DNA from: Klebsiella phage Miami
Sequence record: MT701590.1
DNA length: 64,000 nt
Direction: 5' to 3' (one strand)
Position numbers and translations under genes: made by a program. The stretch's first letter is position 1. Each line of letters starts with the position of its first letter. Under the pieces are notes generated by a model. The model worked only from the letters and a program-made list of their open reading frames with translations. It searched no databases and was not told where the DNA came from. Of the stretch, positions 3,384-64,000 are shown piece by piece.

Positions 3384-3926
3384 ATGTCGGAAATCATCAG
3401 TTACAATAAAGCGCAGCTGGTTAATGGGTTCGAACTCGTTTGCCATCATCGCACCATTCACCTGTTCGAAGATGTTTTCGAAAAGGGCAGGTACAATAAA
3501 GAGTTCGTTGCTAAATTTGACGAACTGGAAGTATTTTTGGATGTTCGTTACGCGATCATCTTAGGGAGAAAAGATAAAGACCTCACACTGCATCTAATTC
3601 GCAGTAATGCGGCTCGTGAGATCGTCAGCTGGGATTATCATTACAAATCTAACGATAACAACCCCGACAATTGGAAGATGGAAGCCATCGGACAGTTTAT
3701 CATCAGTGATATGGAGCAGGGATATTTCTCCCTCTCCCCTGGCTATCGAAGCGACATTAATGATCTTCTGACTTACATTGGCGGTCAAGAGAAAGAGGTC
3801 AATATTCGCAATACCGAAATCAGCGTCAGCGAAGGTAAATTTAACTTCGTCGGTCGGAACGGCCAGCTCGGCCCGGGTTTGTTGTCAGAGACTAAACCAG
3901 TTAACCTCATACAGCTATGGGCGTAA
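3384..3926 (+). CDS. hypothetical protein
   Basis: ORF with an aggaaaaaac SD context; ends at the bidirectional terminator. Confidence 0.5.
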   Translation: MSEIISYNKAQLVNGFELVCHHRTIHLFEDVFEKGRYNKEFVAKFDELEVFLDVRYAIILGRKDKDLTLHLIRSNAAREIVSWDYHYKSNDNNPDNWKMEAIGQFIISDMEQGYFSLSPGYRSDINDLLTYIGGQEKEVNIRNTEISVSEGKFNFVGRNGQLGPGLLSETKPVNLIQLWA

Positions 3927-47823: not shown

Positions 47824-49531
47824 TACCAGCACCACATCGACCACATCAAGTACGAGTGTTGCGGCGACGGGTCCTCAGTTACCTAACTCGAATGATCTAC
47901 TCACCCCACTCGATATTTCCAACCTTTACGATCCGGATACGGTAGCCGATTCTGATGCGTCAAAATACATCGTTGGTCGTGAAGGCCAAACGGTCATAGA
48001 CGGATTGAACCAACGAGCTTACGTCATTACTCACGTTGGGACTGAAGATGCGAAATACAAATCAACGTTAAAACGGATAGGGTTTGTTACGGATAGCGAC
48101 GACAACTCCAGTGACATCATCGGTTTACCGGGACGCTTTGCCGGCAATGGTGTTTTGGGAATCGACTACAGTGTCAGACCTCCTCGGGCTGTCATCGATG
48201 GTCGTGTATGGGCTCCTGATGCGGCCTACGGTTTGCTTTATAAAGGCGTGGTTATCGGTGATAGCGGTCAGGTCATTTCTGTTCAATACGCAACTAATGG
48301 TGATTTGATTTCTAATCAGGTCCCGACTAAATTAGCTGCGGTTAACAACATGACCAACCACAGTATTTTCACCACTACTGCTTTTTCGGTGACTCAAACG
48401 GCTGACGAACTCCCGGACGGAAGTTTGTGCACGCTGGTGTTCTTCGATGCGGCCGGTAACATGATTCCCGAACCTTATGAACTTGGCGTGATGCACACTG
48501 CGTTGCTGAGAGATCATCAGATCGGGATCAAGTATGTTTCGGCTATTGAACTGATATCTCCTTGGTTCACCGATACGACCGATCCTACTACGCTGAACAT
48601 TCCTATCAACGTTGCGATGAGCTCGGTTCAATTCTCTGCGCGCATCCATTATAACGATGGATCAACCAAAGAGCAATTGATTGACGGGACCAAATGTGCG
48701 ATCATCGGGCTCAATGAATACAAACCTACTACGGTAGGTCAGCGTGCTTCGATCGTACTTCGGTATTCGTTCGATGAGGATGAACAGGCTTTAATTGCTA
48801 CACCTAATTATCCAGACATGATCACCCAGGCTTATCAGATCGTTTGTACTCAGGTTAACGGCGCTTACTCTCCAAAACTCTACACTTATCCGGTGTGGAA
48901 CGGAACAGGGTATTCGCTCAAACATTACCTGTACGATCTTACCCGCGGATATGCAACTGACGTTACTCAGCATGTTACACTCAACGACACGTCGCCAGCC
49001 TTCCAGCCGGCTAACTATGGCGTTCAGCAAGACATGGTGTTTAACCTGACGCTGTCAGACGTATCTTCGACGTTTAAAGCGTGGACGCTGGTACAGCATA
49101 CTTCTATTACGTTGTATAAAGCGAATACCGGGACGGGTCGTCGTTGGGCTATCCAGTACTCTTCTGCGAATAACCCTTACGTCGCTTATAACGTCGGGTA
49201 TACCGAAGCCAATGGTGTTCAGTCCATTAACCTGGCTGGCTCCATCCTCACGATTTCTGATTGGTTGAATCGACTCTACTATCCGGTAGAACCATTGATC
49301 GATACCACGAAAGAATCGGCGGCTCTGGTTCCTAACTATATCCGGTTGGTTGACACTAACGGGGTTACTCACGACCTTGAAATCAACGATTGGAATAAAC
49401 CTCAAGCGCTCACTTCTCCTGTTGCAAGTGGTCAAACCCTCTTCCTGCAATGGATTCAGAAATCAGAGAACGGGGCCGAACTCCAATTGGCGACCACGGG
49501 TGTTGTTGTAGACGTCGCTCCGAGCAATTAA
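47816..49531 (+). CDS. hypothetical structural protein (571 aa)
   Basis: Start overlaps the upstream stop (ATGTTTGA); Ser/Thr-rich N-terminus. Confidence 0.55.
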   Translation: MFDTSTTSTTSSTSVAATGPQLPNSNDLLTPLDISNLYDPDTVADSDASKYIVGREGQTVIDGLNQRAYVITHVGTEDAKYKSTLKRIGFVTDSDDNSSDIIGLPGRFAGNGVLGIDYSVRPPRAVIDGRVWAPDAAYGLLYKGVVIGDSGQVISVQYATNGDLISNQVPTKLAAVNNMTNHSIFTTTAFSVTQTADELPDGSLCTLVFFDAAGNMIPEPYELGVMHTALLRDHQIGIKYVSAIELISPWFTDTTDPTTLNIPINVAMSSVQFSARIHYNDGSTKEQLIDGTKCAIIGLNEYKPTTVGQRASIVLRYSFDEDEQALIATPNYPDMITQAYQIVCTQVNGAYSPKLYTYPVWNGTGYSLKHYLYDLTRGYATDVTQHVTLNDTSPAFQPANYGVQQDMVFNLTLSDVSSTFKAWTLVQHTSITLYKANTGTGRRWAIQYSSANNPYVAYNVGYTEANGVQSINLAGSILTISDWLNRLYYPVEPLIDTTKESAALVPNYIRLVDTNGVTHDLEINDWNKPQALTSPVASGQTLFLQWIQKSENGAELQLATTGVVVDVAPSN

Positions 49532-49543
49532 GATTCGTTATCC

Positions 49544-49573
49544 TAACTACCGGTCTGAAAAGACCGGTAGTTA
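49544..49573 (+). terminator. hairpin after the 571-aa gene
   Basis: taactaccggtc-tgaaaa-gaccggtagtta. Confidence 0.45.
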
Positions 49574-49614
49574 TATTTTATATCGAGACCGAGACAAACC
49601 GACAGGATAAAAAC

Positions 49615-52600
49615 ATGTTTGCAAGTAAAGACGAATTAGAACTACATCTTGCAAGAGAAAAACTTGCTATGATAGGCGCGACAGAAAGTCAGCTCCCCGA
49701 ATACCTGCTCGATGACGACACAGAAGCGCTTCCCATCAGGACCCCAGAAGAGTTGCTTCTAGCCCATTATCGAGAAGATACGTTAAGCGCGATCAAAACG
49801 GTCAGGTTCTTAAAGGACTTCGAACGTTATAACGCTAAACCGGATCTGACGACGAAGAACATCTCTTTCTTAAAGGTTGCTGAAATCTTTAGACTGATGG
49901 GGATAAAGAATTACTATTTCTGCCTCCAGCTCAACAATCCGTTGCTGATAGGGGTGGATCCTTACGACCCCAACCTGACAGATGAACAAAAATTCATGAT
50001 CCTCCAGGAGTGCCGTGAAAACTTCTGGTATTTCCTCCGTGAAGTACTTCATCTGAGCGGTGGTATTCAGTTCCAGGCAAACAGAGCAAACATCTGTTTC
50101 TTATGGTGTTATTTGTGCCACGTCAACACCATGCTAATCATTCCAAGGCAATTCGGGAAAAATTCTAAATTAGATTCTCTTGTAAAAATACCCAATGGCT
50201 GGAAGAAAATGGGGGATATGCGCAAGGGTGACGTAGTATCCACTCCTGATGGTAAAACGGCTAAAGTTACTGGAGTTTATCCCCAAGGTGTCACGCCTTT
50301 ATATAAAGTTACTTTTAAAGACGGAAGAGAATCTTACGTTGGGTCTGATCATTATTGGACAGTATGGGATCCGGGTAAGGGCGATGGCGGGGTCTGGCGA
50401 ACACTGACCACACTCGAGTGCCAACAACGCATGACCGAGATGAAGAAAGCGCATAACTATCTTTCCGTTCCTTTGGTTCAGCCTGATAATGATCCAGATA
50501 AGAAACTTGCCATTCATCCTTATGTTCTAGGTGTTTTACTGGGTGACGGATGCATCTCTAATAAAAGCGTTGTTGTAGCTAAACCAGATAAAGAGATGTT
50601 CGATAAGGTTACAGGGCTCATCCCTGAGTCACTGGAAACCTCATGGGTTGATGATAAGAGCTTTATCATCAGACGTAAGCCGACTAACATAACCCAGAAC
50701 AATCAACTTAAAGATGATTTAACCAATCTCGATTTATTCGGATTGCGGTCCTGGGAGAAATTTGTTCCTACCGATTACTTAAATGGTTCTTATCGCCAGC
50801 GTTTAGAGTTGCTACAGGGTTTACTTGATACTGATGGTCACGCAGGTACCGGTGGTAACATTGAGTACTGTACAACATCTCCTAAACTTGCTAAAGATTT
50901 CGTTTACCTCGCTCGTAGCATCGGGGCAATATGTTCTTGTAAAGAACGCCACACGTATTACACACATAATGGCGAGAGACGCCAGGGGAGATTATCTTAT
51001 CGCATTAGTGTTCGACACACACAGCCTTGGGAACTCTTCACGTTAAGTCGTAAACGAGATCGTTTAGTTGACAAAACACGAGGGTTAAAATTTAACAGCC
51101 GTCTAACCATGCGTTCCATCGAGTATGTAGGGGAAGAAGAGACTCAGTGCATTGAAGTGGACCATCCTGATCATCTTTACATCATGGATGATTTCGTCGT
51201 CACTCACAACACGGTTTCTGCCCAGAGCATTATGTTCTGGTTAACTTACCTAACCGGGCAGTCTTATGAGTCCCACTTAATCACCCTGAAAGACGATAAC
51301 CGTAGTCAGTTCGTAGAGGCGTTAAAGGGTATTCGTAACAACATCCCGAGTTACTTAACCAACGTAGGGTGGCGAGATAAGGATAGCGGTAACTCGTTAA
51401 CCTATAGTGCGTTTGGGGATGATAAGAAGAACATCTTCCGTATTAGCGTCCCGCAAATCGGTAGAGAAGCCGCTCGTAACGTTGGTCGTGGTTTGACTAT
51501 CAAAACCCGTATGATCGACGAACCGGCATATATCAACTTCATGGAAGAGATACTTAACGGTGCAGGTCCTAGTACGCTAACGGCTCGTGCTAACGCCAGA
51601 AGAATAGGCGAACCCTATGGGACGGGATTCATTACCACGCCTGCGAGTAAAACGACGGCAAGCGGCGAATACATGTACAACATGTTGATGGATGCGACCG
51701 AGTGGCGAGAAACGTTCTTCGACAGTTTTAACGAGAGTCATCTGTACCAGCGTTTGATTAAAGCGAGTCCTGTGGAGGGAATCACCAGCCCTACAGTAGG
51801 AATGGTTTTCAACTACTTGCAGCTGGGTAGGAATAAGGACTGGGTTAAGAAAACCATAGACGAGTTAAAGTTAAGTTTAGCCGAAGCGAAGATCGACTTA
51901 CTGTTAATGTGGGACGACGCAAGTAAAGGTAAACTTTTCGACGACTTAACCCGAGAAGCGTTAAACGAGGGTAAACGAGGGATACTCTGGAGTCAGGAAG
52001 TAGGGAGCACGGGTTTGTTTATCGACTGGTTTATTACGCCAGAAGAACACACCCGGATCATAACTGGCAACAGTCAGACCTTTTACGTCGTTGGATGCGA
52101 TACCTCTGCTGCGCAAAACCGAGATGCCTGTACAGTAGTGATAAGGGATGTCATGGATGGTAAAGTCGTTGGGGTGGGTCGTTATCCGATAGCCTACTTA
52201 ATGGACGTTGGTGAGGTACTACAAACGATCCTGTTAGAGATTAAGAACAGCTTACTGATCATCGAGCGTAACTTCGCGCATCACATGATCGACCAACTGC
52301 TCGTTAGTCTTCCTGCATTGGGGATCGATCCCTTTAAACGTATCTTTAATCAGATCATACAAGATCCGGTTAAGTACGAAAAAGAAATGATCGAGTTTAA
52401 ACAACGTAATTTCGCTAACAGAGACAGTCACTTCTATCTGAGGTTCAAACACCTGTTTGGGTTCGTTACCAATGCCAAAACGCGTGACGAAGTATATAGT
52501 TTTATCCAAGAAGCGGTAGGAACCACTGGAGATAAAATTTATTATACTAAACTCATCGACGAACTGGTTAACCTCAAAGAGAAAGGCGGGAGGATCGACC

Positions 52601-53013
52601 ACGAAAACAATAAACACGATGACCTGGTTATCGCTTGGTTGTTAGGATTCTGGTTCTTGAAACTGGGTAACAATAAAAGTGAATACGGAATTCCTCCAGG
52701 CATTAGTTTGAGTAAAATCAGCTTAATGCGTGTTGGGGACGATAAGAATGAGGAAACCAACAGTGCGCACAATGAAGCGATGGTTGCACTTTATCGTCGT
52801 AAAGTTGAAGAGCTGAGTGACAGACTTATTAAAACCACCGACAATACCGTAGCTCAAAGGATAGAGTACATGATTGACAAACTCAGCAGCATGATCCCTC
52901 AGGATAAGCGTAAGAGTTTGACCATCGATGAAATCGTTAGGAAAGCCAAGGAGGAAAGAAGTCGTCGAGTATTGGAAGCACGTAAGTTACGCAGTCGTTA
53001 CGCATACATGTAA
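49615..53013 (+). CDS. terL: terminase large subunit interrupted by an intein
   Basis: Walker A PRQFGK...T split by an insertion. Table start 49450 overlaps the upstream gene; refined to ATG 49615, which follows agga and lies after the hairpin. Confidence 0.8.
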   Translation: MFASKDELELHLAREKLAMIGATESQLPEYLLDDDTEALPIRTPEELLLAHYREDTLSAIKTVRFLKDFERYNAKPDLTTKNISFLKVAEIFRLMGIKNYYFCLQLNNPLLIGVDPYDPNLTDEQKFMILQECRENFWYFLREVLHLSGGIQFQANRANICFLWCYLCHVNTMLIIPRQFGKNSKLDSLVKIPNGWKKMGDMRKGDVVSTPDGKTAKVTGVYPQGVTPLYKVTFKDGRESYVGSDHYWTVWDPGKGDGGVWRTLTTLECQQRMTEMKKAHNYLSVPLVQPDNDPDKKLAIHPYVLGVLLGDGCISNKSVVVAKPDKEMFDKVTGLIPESLETSWVDDKSFIIRRKPTNITQNNQLKDDLTNLDLFGLRSWEKFVPTDYLNGSYRQRLELLQGLLDTDGHAGTGGNIEYCTTSPKLAKDFVYLARSIGAICSCKERHTYYTHNGERRQGRLSYRISVRHTQPWELFTLSRKRDRLVDKTRGLKFNSRLTMRSIEYVGEEETQCIEVDHPDHLYIMDDFVVTHNTVSAQSIMFWLTYLTGQSYESHLITLKDDNRSQFVEALKGIRNNIPSYLTNVGWRDKDSGNSLTYSAFGDDKKNIFRISVPQIGREAARNVGRGLTIKTRMIDEPAYINFMEEILNGAGPSTLTARANARRIGEPYGTGFITTPASKTTASGEYMYNMLMDATEWRETFFDSFNESHLYQRLIKASPVEGITSPTVGMVFNYLQLGRNKDWVKKTIDELKLSLAEAKIDLLLMWDDASKGKLFDDLTREALNEGKRGILWSQEVGSTGLFIDWFITPEEHTRIITGNSQTFYVVGCDTSAAQNRDACTVVIRDVMDGKVVGVGRYPIAYLMDVGEVLQTILLEIKNSLLIIERNFAHHMIDQLLVSLPALGIDPFKRIFNQIIQDPVKYEKEMIEFKQRNFANRDSHFYLRFKHLFGFVTNAKTRDEVYSFIQEAVGTTGDKIYYTKLIDELVNLKEKGGRIDHENNKHDDLVIAWLLGFWFLKLGNNKSEYGIPPGISLSKISLMRVGDDKNEETNSAHNEAMVALYRRKVEELSDRLIKTTDNTVAQRIEYMIDKLSSMIPQDKRKSLTIDEIVRKAKEERSRRVLEARKLRSRYAYM
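50161..51210 (+). mobile_element. intein (about 350 aa) with a LAGLIDADG homing endonuclease, inserted in the terminase P-loop
   Basis: Block A-like NSKLDSLVKIPNG, two LAGLIDADG motifs (LLGVLLGDGCIS and LQGLLDTDGHAG), and C-terminal block G DDFVVTHN followed by a +1 Thr. Removing it gives RQFGK-TVSAQS (GKT Walker A). Confidence 0.65.
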
Positions 53014-59409: not shown

Positions 59410-60270
59410 CTAGATCCGACTTGGGACAGCGTTTCTGATGGCGTTGTATCTCCGATCCGGGTCAGAATACGTCATGAGTTTTATCCAGCGAGTTTTAAAC
59501 AATTCCTCGTACTGGTTAAGACTATCACGGTATTCGGCGATATCGTCACGGATAATATCAACCTGAACACCAGAACGAGCTACGCCTTCGTCGACTTTGT
59601 ACCGAACAGTTTTCCAAATGTAGTTCTTGGTCATCAGGATAACTAAGTCGCCGAACAGATCGTAAGCTCTTCGATGGATCGTGGATAAACCATCGTCGTA
59701 ACTCAGGATAAGTTTACCTGTCAGGGAGAACACCCCACTCGGCGCTCCATGAATCACAAACGAGTTATTCCCGACGAGGGTTATGTTCGTGAACGTCTGG
59801 GGGATTTCTCGGTTGGGTAACATCCCGTTGATCATGGAGTTCAGTGCGTCGTTGACAGTACCTACCCCGCAGGAGTCGGCATTGCCAAGTACGCTCATGA
59901 TCCCACTGGAGGAATTCATCGCCCCCTGATAAACTTCCACAACCGAAATAATTTTCCGGCCGCCCGTCAGGAAATCAGGGACGTTAACCAGCTCCATCCC
60001 TTGGCCGAGATGTTCAATCCGAGATCCGGTTAAATCAATCAGCTCCGTCACCCCACCCTGGACATTACACCGGGGTAGGATGATCGCATGTATAATTTTT
60101 TCTCGAATGCCTTGCTGAACGGTGGTCTGCGCGTACTGGTTATACCAGTTCCCGGTCAGATTCCCGTTAGGGTTCGAGAACGCAAGCTCCAACAGGTACT
60201 CAGGGATGTCACTCCCGTTGAGAACTTTGTTGATCGCGTAGTCCACGCAGTTCATAATCAACTCCCACAC
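59410..60270 (-). CDS. hypothetical protein (286 aa)
   Basis: ORF 8 nt upstream of 57911..59401 on the same strand. Confidence 0.55.
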   Translation of the reverse strand: MWELIMNCVDYAINKVLNGSDIPEYLLELAFSNPNGNLTGNWYNQYAQTTVQQGIREKIIHAIILPRCNVQGGVTELIDLTGSRIEHLGQGMELVNVPDFLTGGRKIISVVEVYQGAMNSSSGIMSVLGNADSCGVGTVNDALNSMINGMLPNREIPQTFTNITLVGNNSFVIHGAPSGVFSLTGKLILSYDDGLSTIHRRAYDLFGDLVILMTKNYIWKTVRYKVDEGVARSGVQVDIIRDDIAEYRDSLNQYEELFKTRWIKLMTYSDPDRRYNAIRNAVPSRI

Positions 60271-60788
60271 TGAGTTTCGGGACTGGAGAAATTTCCGTCT
60301 CGATAAAAATTCAACTGAGAATTTTTACTCTGGGGTTTTCGGCGGTTATAATATTTCACTGCGGGAATTTAAAAACTCAACGGGTTTACGATCCCGTATG
60401 TTTTTGAGTTTTATTTCCCGTATAAAATACTCCGTGCCGTAAGACAACACCCCACAGAAAAAACCTCGCCTCCGGAAAAAATTCCTCGAAGGCGAGTTGC
60501 CATGATCTCACTCGAGCAAGAATCAATCCGACATACAATCCCAAGTGCTCCGATTTTTTTCTTCGGAATTTTGGTCGTTGGTAAATTTTTACATACAAAT
60601 CTATTTTATATTTGTATTTTTCGCGTGCGCGGATATTCTAAATTTTCAAAGATAATCTAAAACCGATTCCGGTTCTGGGTTTTTATTTTTTCTGTGTTTT
60701 GATTTTCCAAATCCAATTTTCAAAAATCTAAATCTAAAAAATCTAAAATTTTAATACTCAAAAATCCAATTTTCCTAGGGGTCCTTAT

Positions 60789-60814
60789 TACGCGTGCGTA
60801 CGCCCGCACGCATA
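60789..60814. repeat. GC-rich alternating purine-pyrimidine palindrome (left flank of the AT island)
   Basis: tacgcgtgcg-tacgcc-cgcacgcata; the stem gcgtgcg/cgcacgc is shared with the right-flank element. Confidence 0.6.
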
Positions 60815-60970
60815 TAAAAAATAAATATAATACGTAGTATTATATTTTCATTTGGTTTTATATTTTTAATTTATTAAAAATATATTAATATAAATTATTA
60901 TAAATATTTTTATTAGTTTGTTTTTATAAAATATATATAAATATATATTTATATATATTTATATTCATTA
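60815..60970. repeat. AT island (about 155 bp, at least 95% A+T) with TATA/ATAT micro-repeats
   Basis: Seen directly: ...taaatatttttattagtttgtttttataaaatatatataaatatatatttatatatatttatattcatta. The rest of the window is about 45% GC. Confidence 0.6.
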
Positions 60971-61015
60971 GGCGCGCGCCAGCGCGTGTGTGCATGTGCG
61001 TGCGCGCACGCGTAA
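60971..61015. repeat. GC-rich palindromes with Z-DNA-prone alternating tracts (right flank of the AT island)
   Basis: ggcgcgcgcc is a perfect 10-bp palindrome, gcgtgcgcgcacgc a perfect 14-bp palindrome, and gtgtgtgcatgtgcgtg is an alternating purine-pyrimidine tract. Confidence 0.6.
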
Positions 61016-61418
61016 TAGAGAAGGGGTTATAAAAATACAAGATTGACCCTGAGAGATTATCCAGAAAAAATCACACAGAGTAAAAATATTAACCGGAATG
61101 ATTTTGAGAAGATTTAATACTCAACCTAGGAATTCGTATCAGTCGGATGAAAAAACGTTTTAGAAATCGATACAGGAATTTTTAGAGGGTATCCCGATCG
61201 AGTTCTCAGGAAAGATTATTCGGAGAATAAAAATATTTTAATCAAGATAATTAATTTTTACGGTAAGTTAGATTTATCGAGACGAGAAGATTTAATCACA
61301 AAGTAATTTCTTACGGAGTAAATAATCTTCTGAACAGGACCGAGATCTCGAATAGCCAGATGGAAATTATCCATCCATTCGAAAGTTAACCTGAATTATC
61401 CCTAAGAGGCGATATCCT

Positions 61419-62153: not shown

Positions 62154-63143
62154 TTCCTAACGACAGAGTGATGTTATTAGTAAAGATCTTTGGACTCCCT
62201 GTTGATTAACTAGCGACCCAACCTCATCTCTTTGAACCTCCTTACCACGAGCGAGATAGCCAAAGTAGCTAGAGATTTTCAGGGGGTTCAATCCCCATTA
62301 TTCGTTAATCTTATTAGACCCATTGTCCTTAGCCATGTAGCGACGGCCATTCTCCTGTGACAGACAAGTTTTTGTTCAATGGGATAGATTAACGTTTTTC
62401 TTCACGTCGTGTTATCTGATGAGTCTTCGACGCTAAACAAGACGAAACCTAATGAATCTATTTTATTAGGTCATAATTCAACCTAAGCGTTGAACGGGCA
62501 GTTAGGGGCAATGGTCCCCGAGGTCTTCAGCTTCTTCGCCTGCCCGCACTAAAAAAGTTCTTTCATGATTAGGAGTGCCGCACTCTACGAGCGGACAATA
62601 AGCAACCGAAAGTGGGAGAGAAAGAAGCGTGTCTGGTCGCTTGCCGGAAAGTTGGTTCAGGCGGGTTTCTTCCCAACCCAAACGACGCTGCCCAAGATAG
62701 GGCTGCAAGTCGTATTAGCGAATTATACCGGTATGCGGGGTTTCCGCGATAAACCGGGTTAGCTACGGGTAAGAAACCGGCCGGAGTAATCAGCCTTTCG
62801 TATTCGGGTAACGTGAGTTATTGTAGAGATATCTCTGAGGGTTAGGCCAACCCCCGACGTTCTCCGAGTCCGAAGGGAAGCTTGCTCAGCTTCGTAGGAA
62901 CTCCAAAATCTCAGACGGTCACACCTCGCAATCTTACGGCAGTATGATTGCCTATTCGTCCTTTGTCGCTCACCAAGGGGCGAGTAGGAAACCTCTGCCA
63001 CGGCGTTTCGTTTGCCTTTTACCATTGCTTTTGTTATAACCTCTCTGTTTGAGTTGAGTGTTAACTTCCCCAAGAGTATAACCTGTTATCTCTCTCTTCG
63101 TGAGGAGTCGGAGATAATGGGGTAAATTCTTAGGAGGTTCGTT
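62154..63143. ncRNA. ORF-poor, GC-elevated region of about 1 kb; candidate structured non-coding RNA or a decayed gene
   Basis: Only short, Arg-rich, mutually overlapping ORFs in any frame. Local GC is visibly above the flanks. Numerous GC stems and GAAA/GNRA-like loops (e.g. gggcag...ggggcaatggtcccc...ctgccc at 62502-62550; gccggaaag; ccgaaag). Confidence 0.3.
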
Positions 63144-63332: not shown

Positions 63333-63491
63333 GTCGAGCTACGCGCTCAACCTACCTTAGGGCCGGAAGTAGTTACGACTTAGGGGGAAAGAAGAGTCGT
63401 GCCTTTAAGTACCCCAACCCCATTCGTGTGGTGATCTTTCACATCATCCCATGAATATCGCCACATCATCATTAAAGTTCTACCATGAATT

Positions 63492-63514
63492 TTTATTCCT
63501 TCCAGTAGGGTTCG
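63492..63514 (+). terminator. rho-independent terminator
   Basis: ccagtaggg-ttcg-gccctactgg followed by acttttttcgcgtttttt. Confidence 0.6.
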
Positions 63515-63663
63515 GCCCTACTGGACTTTTTTCGCGTTTTTTAAATCGGCAGTTGTTTAATTATGTCAGAACTAGATTTTTTCAGTTCTAAATTATTACA
63601 ATGTAAAGCAAAAGATAATGCTTTCCATTCCAACTATCATAATTTCTTTTAGGAGCTAGATCA

Positions 63664-64000
63664 ATGAGTACATTACGTGTTTACGCGTGCGGCGGTACTG
63701 GTATTAATATTGCGTCTAAATGGATTGCCACCGGTGCGAATACGCTTATTCGTAAAGCCCAGTTCATTGGACTGGATAGCAGTGAAAACAACAAACCGTA
63801 TAACGACGCCTTTAAGGTCGAACGTCCTGAAGGAACTCGTGGCGGTGGCAAAGAACGTAAGCTGATCGGTAAAATCGCTGCTGGGTTTATTGACAGTATT
63901 TTGACCAAACATAAACCGGGCGATTTCAACCTGATCATCATGAACGCGGCTGGCGCTACCGGGAGTACATTCGGCCCGACTCTGATCAACCGTCTTCTCT
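63664..64000 (+). CDS. phuZ: PhuZ-like phage tubulin, N-terminal 112 aa, truncated by the window end
   Basis: ATG 63664 follows aggagctagatca; frame open to the window end, and not in the ORF table because no stop is reached. MSTLRVYACGGTGINIASKW (tubulin/FtsZ T1 loop, compare PhuZ ...IFAGGTGMNVATK...), PEGTRGGGKERK, and NAAGATGSTFGP (T4 signature-like). Confidence 0.6.
   Translation, partial: MSTLRVYACGGTGINIASKWIATGANTLIRKAQFIGLDSSENNKPYNDAFKVERPEGTRGGGKERKLIGKIAAGFIDSILTKHKPGDFNLIIMNAAGATGSTFGPTLINRLL

Follow-up and report, generated by a model that had tools for sequence, protein, structure and literature searches.

The element and its setting

The window considered here is a 64,000-nucleotide (nt) stretch of Klebsiella phage Miami (MT701590.1), and the subject of this analysis is a non-coding element of 1.15 kb at 60271–61418 of the window, examined as a candidate replication origin. 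The element is situated between two divergent transcription units. On its left lies a homologue of phiKZ gp42, and on its right, beyond a gene for a 244-amino-acid (aa) protein, it heads a block comprising the tubulin PhuZ, an SH3DP domain protein, a divergent family-B DNA polymerase, and an RNA polymerase subunit; a tubulin-like gene is annotated about 2 kb rightward in the record of the relative KPN8. The window belongs to a phiKZ-like, nucleus-forming phage (Chimalliviridae). Phages of this family replicate within a protein shell that excludes host factors, which raises the question of how their replication starts, and no replication origin described for the Chimalliviridae was found in a literature search.

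The region of the window matches five jumbo phages (251–257 kb) at 89–97% identity, namely Klebsiella phages YC1, KPN8, and phiKp_32, 'Stenotrophomonas' phage BUCTxx100, and Raoultella phage VB_ZK_P1, and a blastn search against phages for distant matches returned these five close relatives only. BUCTxx100 (OR529409.1) carries a Stenotrophomonas maltophilia label despite 96.7% identity to the Klebsiella phages here, and its host label may need to be checked. Genome-wide ranks (G+C content (GC), gaps free of open reading frames (ORFs), alternating runs, promoter sites) were computed on the whole 256.6-kb genome of KPN8. The close clade of the window is referred to as lineage A, while lineages B–E are metagenomic lineages obtained from protein searches with the two flanking genes, their gp42 homologues being 79%, 66%, 63%, and 51% identical to that of the window, respectively. 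No match to exact conserved 18- and 21-mers or to the gp42 homologue was obtained in the IMG/VR and JGI metagenome collections. Since the 244-aa gene is present in lineages A and B only, its partnership with the element is not an obligatory one.

Composition and symmetry of the core

A sequence-only reading of the window had singled out this region as an exceptional gene-free gap and had listed five features within it, namely hairpins, iteron-like repeats, a GC palindrome, a near-pure A+T island, and tracts prone to adopt Z-DNA. The gap is indeed the longest ORF-free one of the KPN8 genome, and all five features are present where they had been placed; the second of the two hairpins is a strong intrinsic terminator for leftward transcription. 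Small ORFs within the gap were rejected, since length differences among close relatives break their frames. The accompanying description of an otherwise tightly packed phage fails just to the right of the element, where 62154–63143 and 63333–63664 are also free of coding sequences (CDSs).

The AT island is the most extreme feature of the element. It forms the lowest 150-nt GC window of the KPN8 genome, at 6.7% against 23.3% for the next lowest and a genome mean of 44.1% (standard deviation 5.0), and its GC falls to 4% when the window is narrowed to 100 nt. On either side stands a GC clamp carrying one arm of a perfect 13-nt inverted repeat, TATTACGCGTGCG and CGCACGCGTAATA, so that a sharply bounded core of about 230 bp (60786–61017) can be delimited. 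In the right clamp, the GC-rich alternation of purine and pyrimidine by which Z-DNA-prone tracts are recognized (at least 12 bp) extends unbroken over 33 nt in the window; in KPN8 it measures 31 nt and is the longest such run of the genome, the next being 17 nt. Similarly, 5 of the 14 copies of GCGTGCG in the KPN8 genome fall inside about 400 nt at the element. When the core is folded as single-stranded DNA, clamp pairs with clamp at −52 kcal/mol and a z-score of −7.3 in lineage A; the z-score is −6.4 in C and −4.8 in D, the pairing of left with right clamp being found in A and C. The element is bent and rich in A-tracts. Its parts are listed in Table 1.

Table 1. Features of the element and its two flanking genes, in window coordinates
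Feature	Position	Strand	Remarks
Left flanking gene, phiKZ gp42 homologue (DUF7484, phrog_3179)	59410–60270	−	Conserved anchor of the element in all lineages
Promoter-like box ATATTATAACC	60344–60354	−	About 75 nt upstream of the gp42 homologue; read from the sequence, putative function
Hairpin 1	60371–60413		Terminator-like on both strands
Strong intrinsic terminator for leftward transcription	60458–60502	−	Hairpin (60465–60500) with a free energy (dG) of −20, then a T-run
Highly conserved block	60503–60546	−	About 40/42 nt identical between A and B; nucleotide diversity (pi) 0.022; directly upstream of the minus-strand terminator
Outer GC box CGCGTGCGCGG	60622–60632		GC box at the equivalent position in every lineage
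A/T-rich left arm	60633–60773	+	TCTAA at 60637, 60656, 60727, 60733, and 60742, in a single orientation
CCTAGGGGTCC and left GC clamp	60774–60814		TATTACGCGTGCG (60786–60798), left arm of the 13-nt inverted repeat; hairpin GCGTGCG-N6-CGCACGC (60792–60811)
AT island, candidate DNA-unwinding element	60815–60970		Two palindromes: ATAATAC-GTA-GTATTAT (60827–60843) and a perfect 16+16-nt AT palindrome (60929–60960)
Right GC clamp	60971–61017		GGCGCGCGCC (60971–60980); alternating run (60982–61014) including GCGTGCGCGCACGC; CGCACGCGTAATA (61005–61017)
Right arm	61018–61418	+	Untranslated leader or control region; blocks kept in lineage B: AATAGAGAAGG, CTAGGAATTCGTAT (61126–61139), TACAGGAAnTTTTAGAGGGTAT (61171–61192), TTCGAAAGTTAA (61378–61389)
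Right flanking gene, 244 aa	61419–62153	+	Fast-evolving; no family or fold assignment

The right arm additionally contains an imperfect internal duplication, with two copies of GAGAAGATTTAAT. A scan with Rfam 15 of the element and the whole window yielded no relevant match, and none at the gathering score within the element; a tRNA scan found none; and a scan for sigma-70 promoters and terminators gave counts no higher than those of shuffled sequences. A DnaA-box-like TTATCCAGA (61056–61064) was dropped as a candidate, since its conservation stops at the close clade and lineage B lacks it.

Constraint within the close clade

Seven close relatives were compared, with the 4-fold sites of three flanking genes as the yardstick. 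At these sites pi amounts to 0.17, 0.20, and 0.34, whereas across the element it ranges from 0.012 to 0.11, with 0.027 in the island and 0.026 in the left clamp. The element is thus 2–15 times more conserved than the 4-fold sites of its neighbours and is under strong purifying selection within the clade. Change is confined to the number of repeats in the A-rich arm, to the length of the GT/GC part of the alternating run in the right clamp, and to hairpin 1, which is dispensable, having been deleted in VB_ZK_P1 and one metagenomic relative and expanded in another.

A separate observation concerns the small palindrome of the island. In KPN8 (L003, about 4445, corresponding to 60834–60836 of the window), its spacer is inverted from GTA to TAC, with 3 of 3 bases changed and both arms intact, which looks like the sort of change expected from a hairpin-mediated template switch.

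These data bear directly on the possibility that the region has no function and is low-complexity junk, a recent insertion, or the relic of a mobile element with terminal inverted repeats. The 13-nt inverted repeat around an AT-rich interior does recall a miniature transposable element, and repeat numbers vary; however, the element is single-copy and shows no evident target-site duplication, the three bases flanking the inverted repeat differing between the two sides. Given the excess of conservation over 4-fold sites and an architecture kept over five lineages, this explanation is effectively refuted, and with it the recent insertion that the sequence-only reading had named as a reason to abandon its proposal.

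Architecture across distant lineages

The order of parts is the same in all lineages. The gp42 homologue is followed in turn by a minus-strand terminator (in lineages A–D, those scanned), a GC box, an A/T arm, a first GC clamp, an AT island, and another GC clamp, beyond which come a right arm and the next gene. Conservation in relatives, which the earlier reading had suggested as a check, is therefore found for the element, and in lineage B it extends to 40 of 40 nt at the left clamp (CCTAGGGG...CGCACGCAT), which match the window exactly in spite of a neighbouring protein with no more than 39% identity. The left GC clamp starts with TAYTACGCGTG across the lineages, and the core of this box, T..T.CGCGTG, is the sole invariant sequence over the five. 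Apart from such short boxes, which alone survive, the sequence has mostly turned over between lineages.

Physical character has been retained to a greater extent. Islands of 77–139 nt are found in the distant lineages, the one in E being about 85 nt and less extreme, and a perfect AT-only inverted repeat with arms of 14–16 nt occurs in each island of lineages A–D, those in which it was tested (P ≤ 0.004 each). In the small palindrome, both arms have changed together in lineage B. Alternating purine/pyrimidine runs measure 33 nt in B, 47 nt in C, and 13–15 nt in D, their sequences differing, and the gap in lineage E contains a 16-nt alternating palindrome. Since architecture, palindromy, and alternation are kept while the sequence turns over, physical properties are conserved more than sequence.

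The position of the element is conserved beyond these lineages. In Pseudomonas phage EL, which belongs to another genus, the genome-wide GC minimum lies in the syntenic gap between gp14 and gp15 (21.3% against 30% for the next, with a genome mean of 49.3% and a standard deviation of 4.5), and this gap likewise heads PhuZ, the DNA polymerase, the nuclear shell protein, and the RNA polymerase. In two further relatives, the syntenic site is the GC minimum of a 21-kb locus.

Transcription signals around the element

From sequences enriched in intergenic regions, a clade-wide promoter motif was derived, TA.A.tTTTttAGatC-TATATTA-tc. The early promoters of phiKZ have been described as a T-rich block followed by an extended −10 element (PMC8244752; PMC7598289), and the motif matches this description. 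In KPN8, a position weight matrix built on it identifies 26 sites that score 12 bits or more, without exception on the plus strand, and in the window it identifies five sites, at 1099, 16543, 38619, 53027, and 63589 (+) with 28–34 bits, the last of them just upstream of PhuZ.

The sequence-only reading had also entertained a very strong divergent early promoter region for the injected virion RNA polymerase, and AT-rich composition, together with TATATTA and TATAATAC heptamers in the island and TATATTAC on both strands in lineage B, would be in keeping with such a cluster. By the position weight matrix, however, the T-rich block followed at fixed spacing by C-TATATTA-c/t is absent from the element, which contains no canonical site of this type. 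Its best score of 9.8 bits lies within pure A+T, where it is expected from composition alone, and the minus strand does not exceed 6.1 bits, so that a hub of early promoters is not supported and this explanation is regarded as very improbable.

Signals of other kinds surround the core. An intrinsic terminator on the minus strand is located between the left arm and the gp42 homologue in lineages A–D, all of those scanned, with dG values of −15 to −18 in B, C, and D, and from this conserved signal transcription is predicted to cross the left arm. Boxes related to ATATTATAACC occupy the equivalent place in lineages B, C, and D (GATTATATAAC, TATTATATAAC, and TTATAACC, respectively), and promoter-like TTATATAAC(C) boxes are found outside the clamps. 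The conserved block immediately before the terminator is possibly the 3' part of a small non-coding RNA. Beside this, the stretch 60458–60546 (−) as a whole, with its 44-nt conserved block followed by a terminator, has a layout suggesting a small non-coding RNA, and a conserved ATAAAATAG lies at about 60600–60610.

Taken together, such signals make up the case for the main rival to an origin, in which the element would be a control region for divergent middle or late transcription, with non-coding RNAs. Promoters for the non-virion RNA polymerase would then lie in or beside the island, the GC hairpins would act as stabilizing 5' stem-loops, insulators, or terminators, and the arms would be long leaders or small RNAs. 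The terminator closing the left arm in four lineages and the small-RNA-like block before it are consistent with this, as are a minus-strand T-run after the left clamp in lineages C and D, promoter-like TTATATAACC boxes outside the clamps (four of them in the right arm of lineage C), and, in lineages A and B, arms whose outward-reading strand is rich in purines. Moreover, where the island begins on its left, an A-rich run followed by TAC(T) is similar to the middle-promoter motif described for phiKZ (PMC8244752). On the other side, middle and late promoters of these phages are not recognizable from sequence (PMC7598289), the right-hand gene is not conserved between lineages, and the 26 ordinary promoters of the same genome do without such features. 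A control region also leaves unexplained the selected alternating runs of 31–47 nt, the perfect AT palindrome, and the unique outlier in composition, and it is considered rather unlikely, although ahead of every other competitor.

Repeats and likeness to known origins

The sequence-only reading had compared the layout of the region with that of origins built on iterons. A-rich short repeats are indeed present at 60700–60780, and TCTAA occurs five times in the left arm against 0.6 expected (P < 0.0005). The repeat units, TCTAA and AAATCTAAA, are however only 5–9 nt long, with spacings of 6–71 nt and a number that varies among close relatives, and the phasing of A-tracts in the left arm is weak. 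Iterons of the lambda ori or plasmid oriV type measure 17–22 nt. The element resembles these origins in its succession of direct repeats, an AT-rich region adjoining them (the island, 60815–60970, with the genome-wide GC minimum), and a GC-rich palindrome; it differs from them in the shortness, irregular spacing, and variable number of its repeats, where at least three direct repeats of about 17–22 bp at helical-phase spacing would be expected, and in having no conserved neighbouring initiator (Rep) gene. The 244-aa neighbour was rejected as an initiator, as it belongs to no family, its AlphaFold model has a predicted local distance difference test (pLDDT) score of 67, and no homologue exists in lineages C and D. 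Because the repeats are short and irregular and this neighbour is unassigned and missing in C and D, the element is not an iteron-type origin; of the original comparison, the presence of a repeat cluster stands and its interpretation as iterons does not.

Short direct repeats upstream of a block containing PhuZ, at a single-copy cis site, could also be read by analogy with tubC as a centromere-like or anchoring site that would tether the phage DNA either to the spindle of the tubulin PhuZ or to the shell of the phage nucleus. In TubZRC systems, iterons lie directly upstream of the tubR-tubZ operon, an arrangement not found here. The repeats are irregular, and PhuZ is 2.7 kb away, beyond non-conserved genes and a non-coding stretch, and is served by a separate canonical promoter at 63589. 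A TubR-like protein was not found; the protein of 244 aa next to the element has no fold assignment and is absent in C and D, and an anchoring role would accordingly be highly unlikely.

Closer parallels exist among origins that function without iterons. T4 oriF/oriG and the T7 primary origin are transcription-primed phage origins in which an AT-rich unwinding element lies beside transcription by the phage polymerase. The element shares with them an AT-rich unwinding element, the proximity of replication genes, and independence of iterons and host initiators. It differs in that no promoter can be placed beside the island, where no site of the one recognizable promoter class occurs (best score 9.8 bits), and in having a much more extreme island with GC inverted repeats and Z-DNA-type tracts around it, flanks that to our knowledge are lacking in the T4 and T7 origins.

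The origins oriS and oriL of herpes simplex virus (HSV) consist of an AT-rich centre and inverted boxes for the origin-binding protein, lie between divergent genes, and are hard to clone and sequence. The same combination of AT-rich palindromic centre, inverted GC-containing boxes (60786–60798 and 61005–61017, with the fold at z = −7.3), and divergent units on either side is found at the element, which also shares with oriS and oriL repeated assembly failures and viral replication inside a compartment resembling a nucleus. The sequences are unrelated, the boxes are spaced by about 200 nt here and by about 20–50 nt in HSV, and the likeness is an analogy only; we know of no origin-binding protein for this element.

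A further possible likeness is with the telomere-resolvase targets of N15 and phiKO2, in which TA-rich sequence adjoins alternating CGCG, as in ATTATACGCG of lineage C. Unlike those targets, the element is not one compact perfect palindrome, and we know of no protelomerase in these phages, no search aimed at one having been made.

Record breaks and termini

Several deposited sequences break at the element. The phiKp_32 record (LC768500.1) ends 13 nt into the island and restarts with an Illumina adapter followed by GGCGCGCGCC, and the island is therefore missing from it. As deposited, this 'complete genome' opens with the adapter and was linearized at an assembly break inside the element (L004 1–72 and the end of L001). 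Short-read metagenomic assemblies of four relatives (L020, L023, L024, and L026) likewise break in or beside the island and clamps. Other records start elsewhere, three contigs read through the element, and L020 and L017 share a 27-nt overlap that spans the left clamp. The breaks are thus assembly failures arising from AT content and palindromes and not physical ends. In practical terms, a site that breaks short-read assemblies and is missing from at least one 'complete' genome indicates that such elements are probably under-represented among assembled jumbo-phage genomes.

Accordingly, a terminal or packaging boundary, as had been suggested from the sequence, finds no support in the records. 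In its more elaborate form, this possibility would make the element a pac site or programmed break, at which the terminase or a phage hairpin nuclease would recognize or cleave the cruciform- or Z-DNA-prone core, cleavage providing the first end for headful packaging or recombination-dependent replication. An element that is unique in the genome, bent, A-tract-rich, and dyad-symmetric would suit such a role. An ORF of 1187 aa, syntenic with the 'terminase large subunit' of EL, lies about 7 kb to the left, and the records of EL and phiKZ annotate an SbcD-like palindrome-specific nuclease. The corresponding gene of KPN8, however, has no Pfam match, so that the nuclease claim rests on those two annotations only, and the terminase candidate is not adjacent to the element. 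The record ends disagree with one another, the sole one here being the assembly break with the adapter, and for phiKZ, circularly permuted DNA whose ends are arbitrary has been reported (PMC12676376). A packaging or break site is therefore judged improbable. As an observation in its own right, the 1187-aa ORF (49450–53013, +) contains an internal LAGLIDADG domain, which is also present in its lineage C homologue, and may represent a terminase with an intein-like or homing-endonuclease insertion.

A candidate replication origin

These results are best explained if the element is a conserved site in the DNA that acts in cis, with a core made to undergo structural transitions when negatively supercoiled. 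A structure-dependent site is indicated because the element is unique in its genome and strongly constrained, because its AT content, palindromy, and alternation are kept despite sequence change, because its position at the head of the replication and nucleus block is conserved, and because it is situated between divergent units and lies outside the ordinary promoter class. Since it accounts for most of these six observations, the function favoured for the site is that of a replication origin, activated by supercoiling or transcription, of this branch of the Chimalliviridae. A probability of about 0.4 is given to this candidate function, and unwinding in vivo, protein binding, and the initiation of replication at the element are inferred from the features described above.

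In the mechanism envisaged, phage RNA polymerases would transcribe outward, leftward to the gp42 homologue and rightward to the PhuZ and DNA polymerase block, and would thereby drive negative supercoils into the core. The island would then melt or extrude a cruciform, with the GC clamps confining the opening, and the clamps may be bound at the conserved TATTACGCGTG and CGCGTAATA boxes by some phage protein. Finally, DNA synthesis could be primed from a transcript or from the opened strands, in the manner of T4 oriF/oriG or the T7 primary origin. A bolder version dispenses with a dedicated initiator altogether, the origin being made of DNA that leaves the normal helix under torsional stress. 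Its modules would be GC clamps prone to adopt Z-DNA, an AT island prone to form a cruciform, and arms bent by A-tracts, and the site would be fired by supercoiling from the divergent transcription of the phage inside the phage nucleus. Selection would then act on purine/pyrimidine alternation, palindromy, and AT content rather than on sequence, with the position inherited, as seen in the same gap of EL. This version is considered doubtful.

Several findings weigh against an origin at this site. The cumulative GC and AT skews of KPN8 rise steadily without a turn at the element, the GC skew following the plus-strand gene bias. Regular iterons and a conserved adjacent initiator gene are both absent. 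A transcriptional control region would account just as well for the terminators, the promoter-like boxes, and the many conserved blocks of the arms. A switch in purine skew across the island is limited to lineages A and B and was for that reason rejected as a general feature. No outlier island is present at the syntenic site of Aphrodite1 and one metagenomic relative, and phiKZ has no comparable outlier island anywhere in its genome, its syntenic gap being ordinary at 34% GC; given these absences, the element in this form cannot be a family-wide origin.

In phiKZ (NC_004629.1), the lowest 150-nt GC window (15.3%, no strong outlier) and the longest alternating run (18 nt) were noted no more than about 320 nt apart at 266486–266957, a tRNA region where strand blocks meet, which provides a weak lead to an analogous site.

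What the earlier proposal of an origin retains is the unique island, the constraint, the architecture, the synteny with EL, and the context of PhuZ and DNA polymerase; its iteron component does not hold. The element offers a single, sharply bounded, and conserved candidate, and a comparative rule can be formulated from it, whereby counterparts in related phages are sought as a genome-wide GC minimum in the gap that separates the gp42 homologue from the divergent unit upstream of it; EL obeys this rule, and phiKZ does not. Even if the element is not an origin, it would still be unusual in that its potential for non-B-DNA is conserved while its sequence turns over.

A second non-coding stretch near PhuZ

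To the right of the element, the CDS-free segments 62154–63143 and 63333–63664 make up a second stretch of about 1 kb with 45–54% GC, located between the 244-aa gene and a 62-aa ORF and PhuZ. Counterparts are present in lineage C (L022, 3332–4266) and in Aphrodite1 (1.66 kb), and the stretch resembles a long structured RNA, with no Rfam family matching it. Within it, a probable hammerhead ribozyme is located at 62405–62484 (+), with counterparts at about 1575–1650 of L017 and about 3805–3892 (−) of L022. Its Rfam scores are below the gathering thresholds (Hammerhead_3, 23.7 bits; RAGATH-1-hammerhead, 19 bits). The candidate core is complete, with CUGAUGA, GAAA, and the cleavage site GUC (GUA in lineage C), and it is kept in lineages A, B, and C with compensatory changes in stems II and III, pairing being retained in 93% of cells against 32–55% when the partners are slid.

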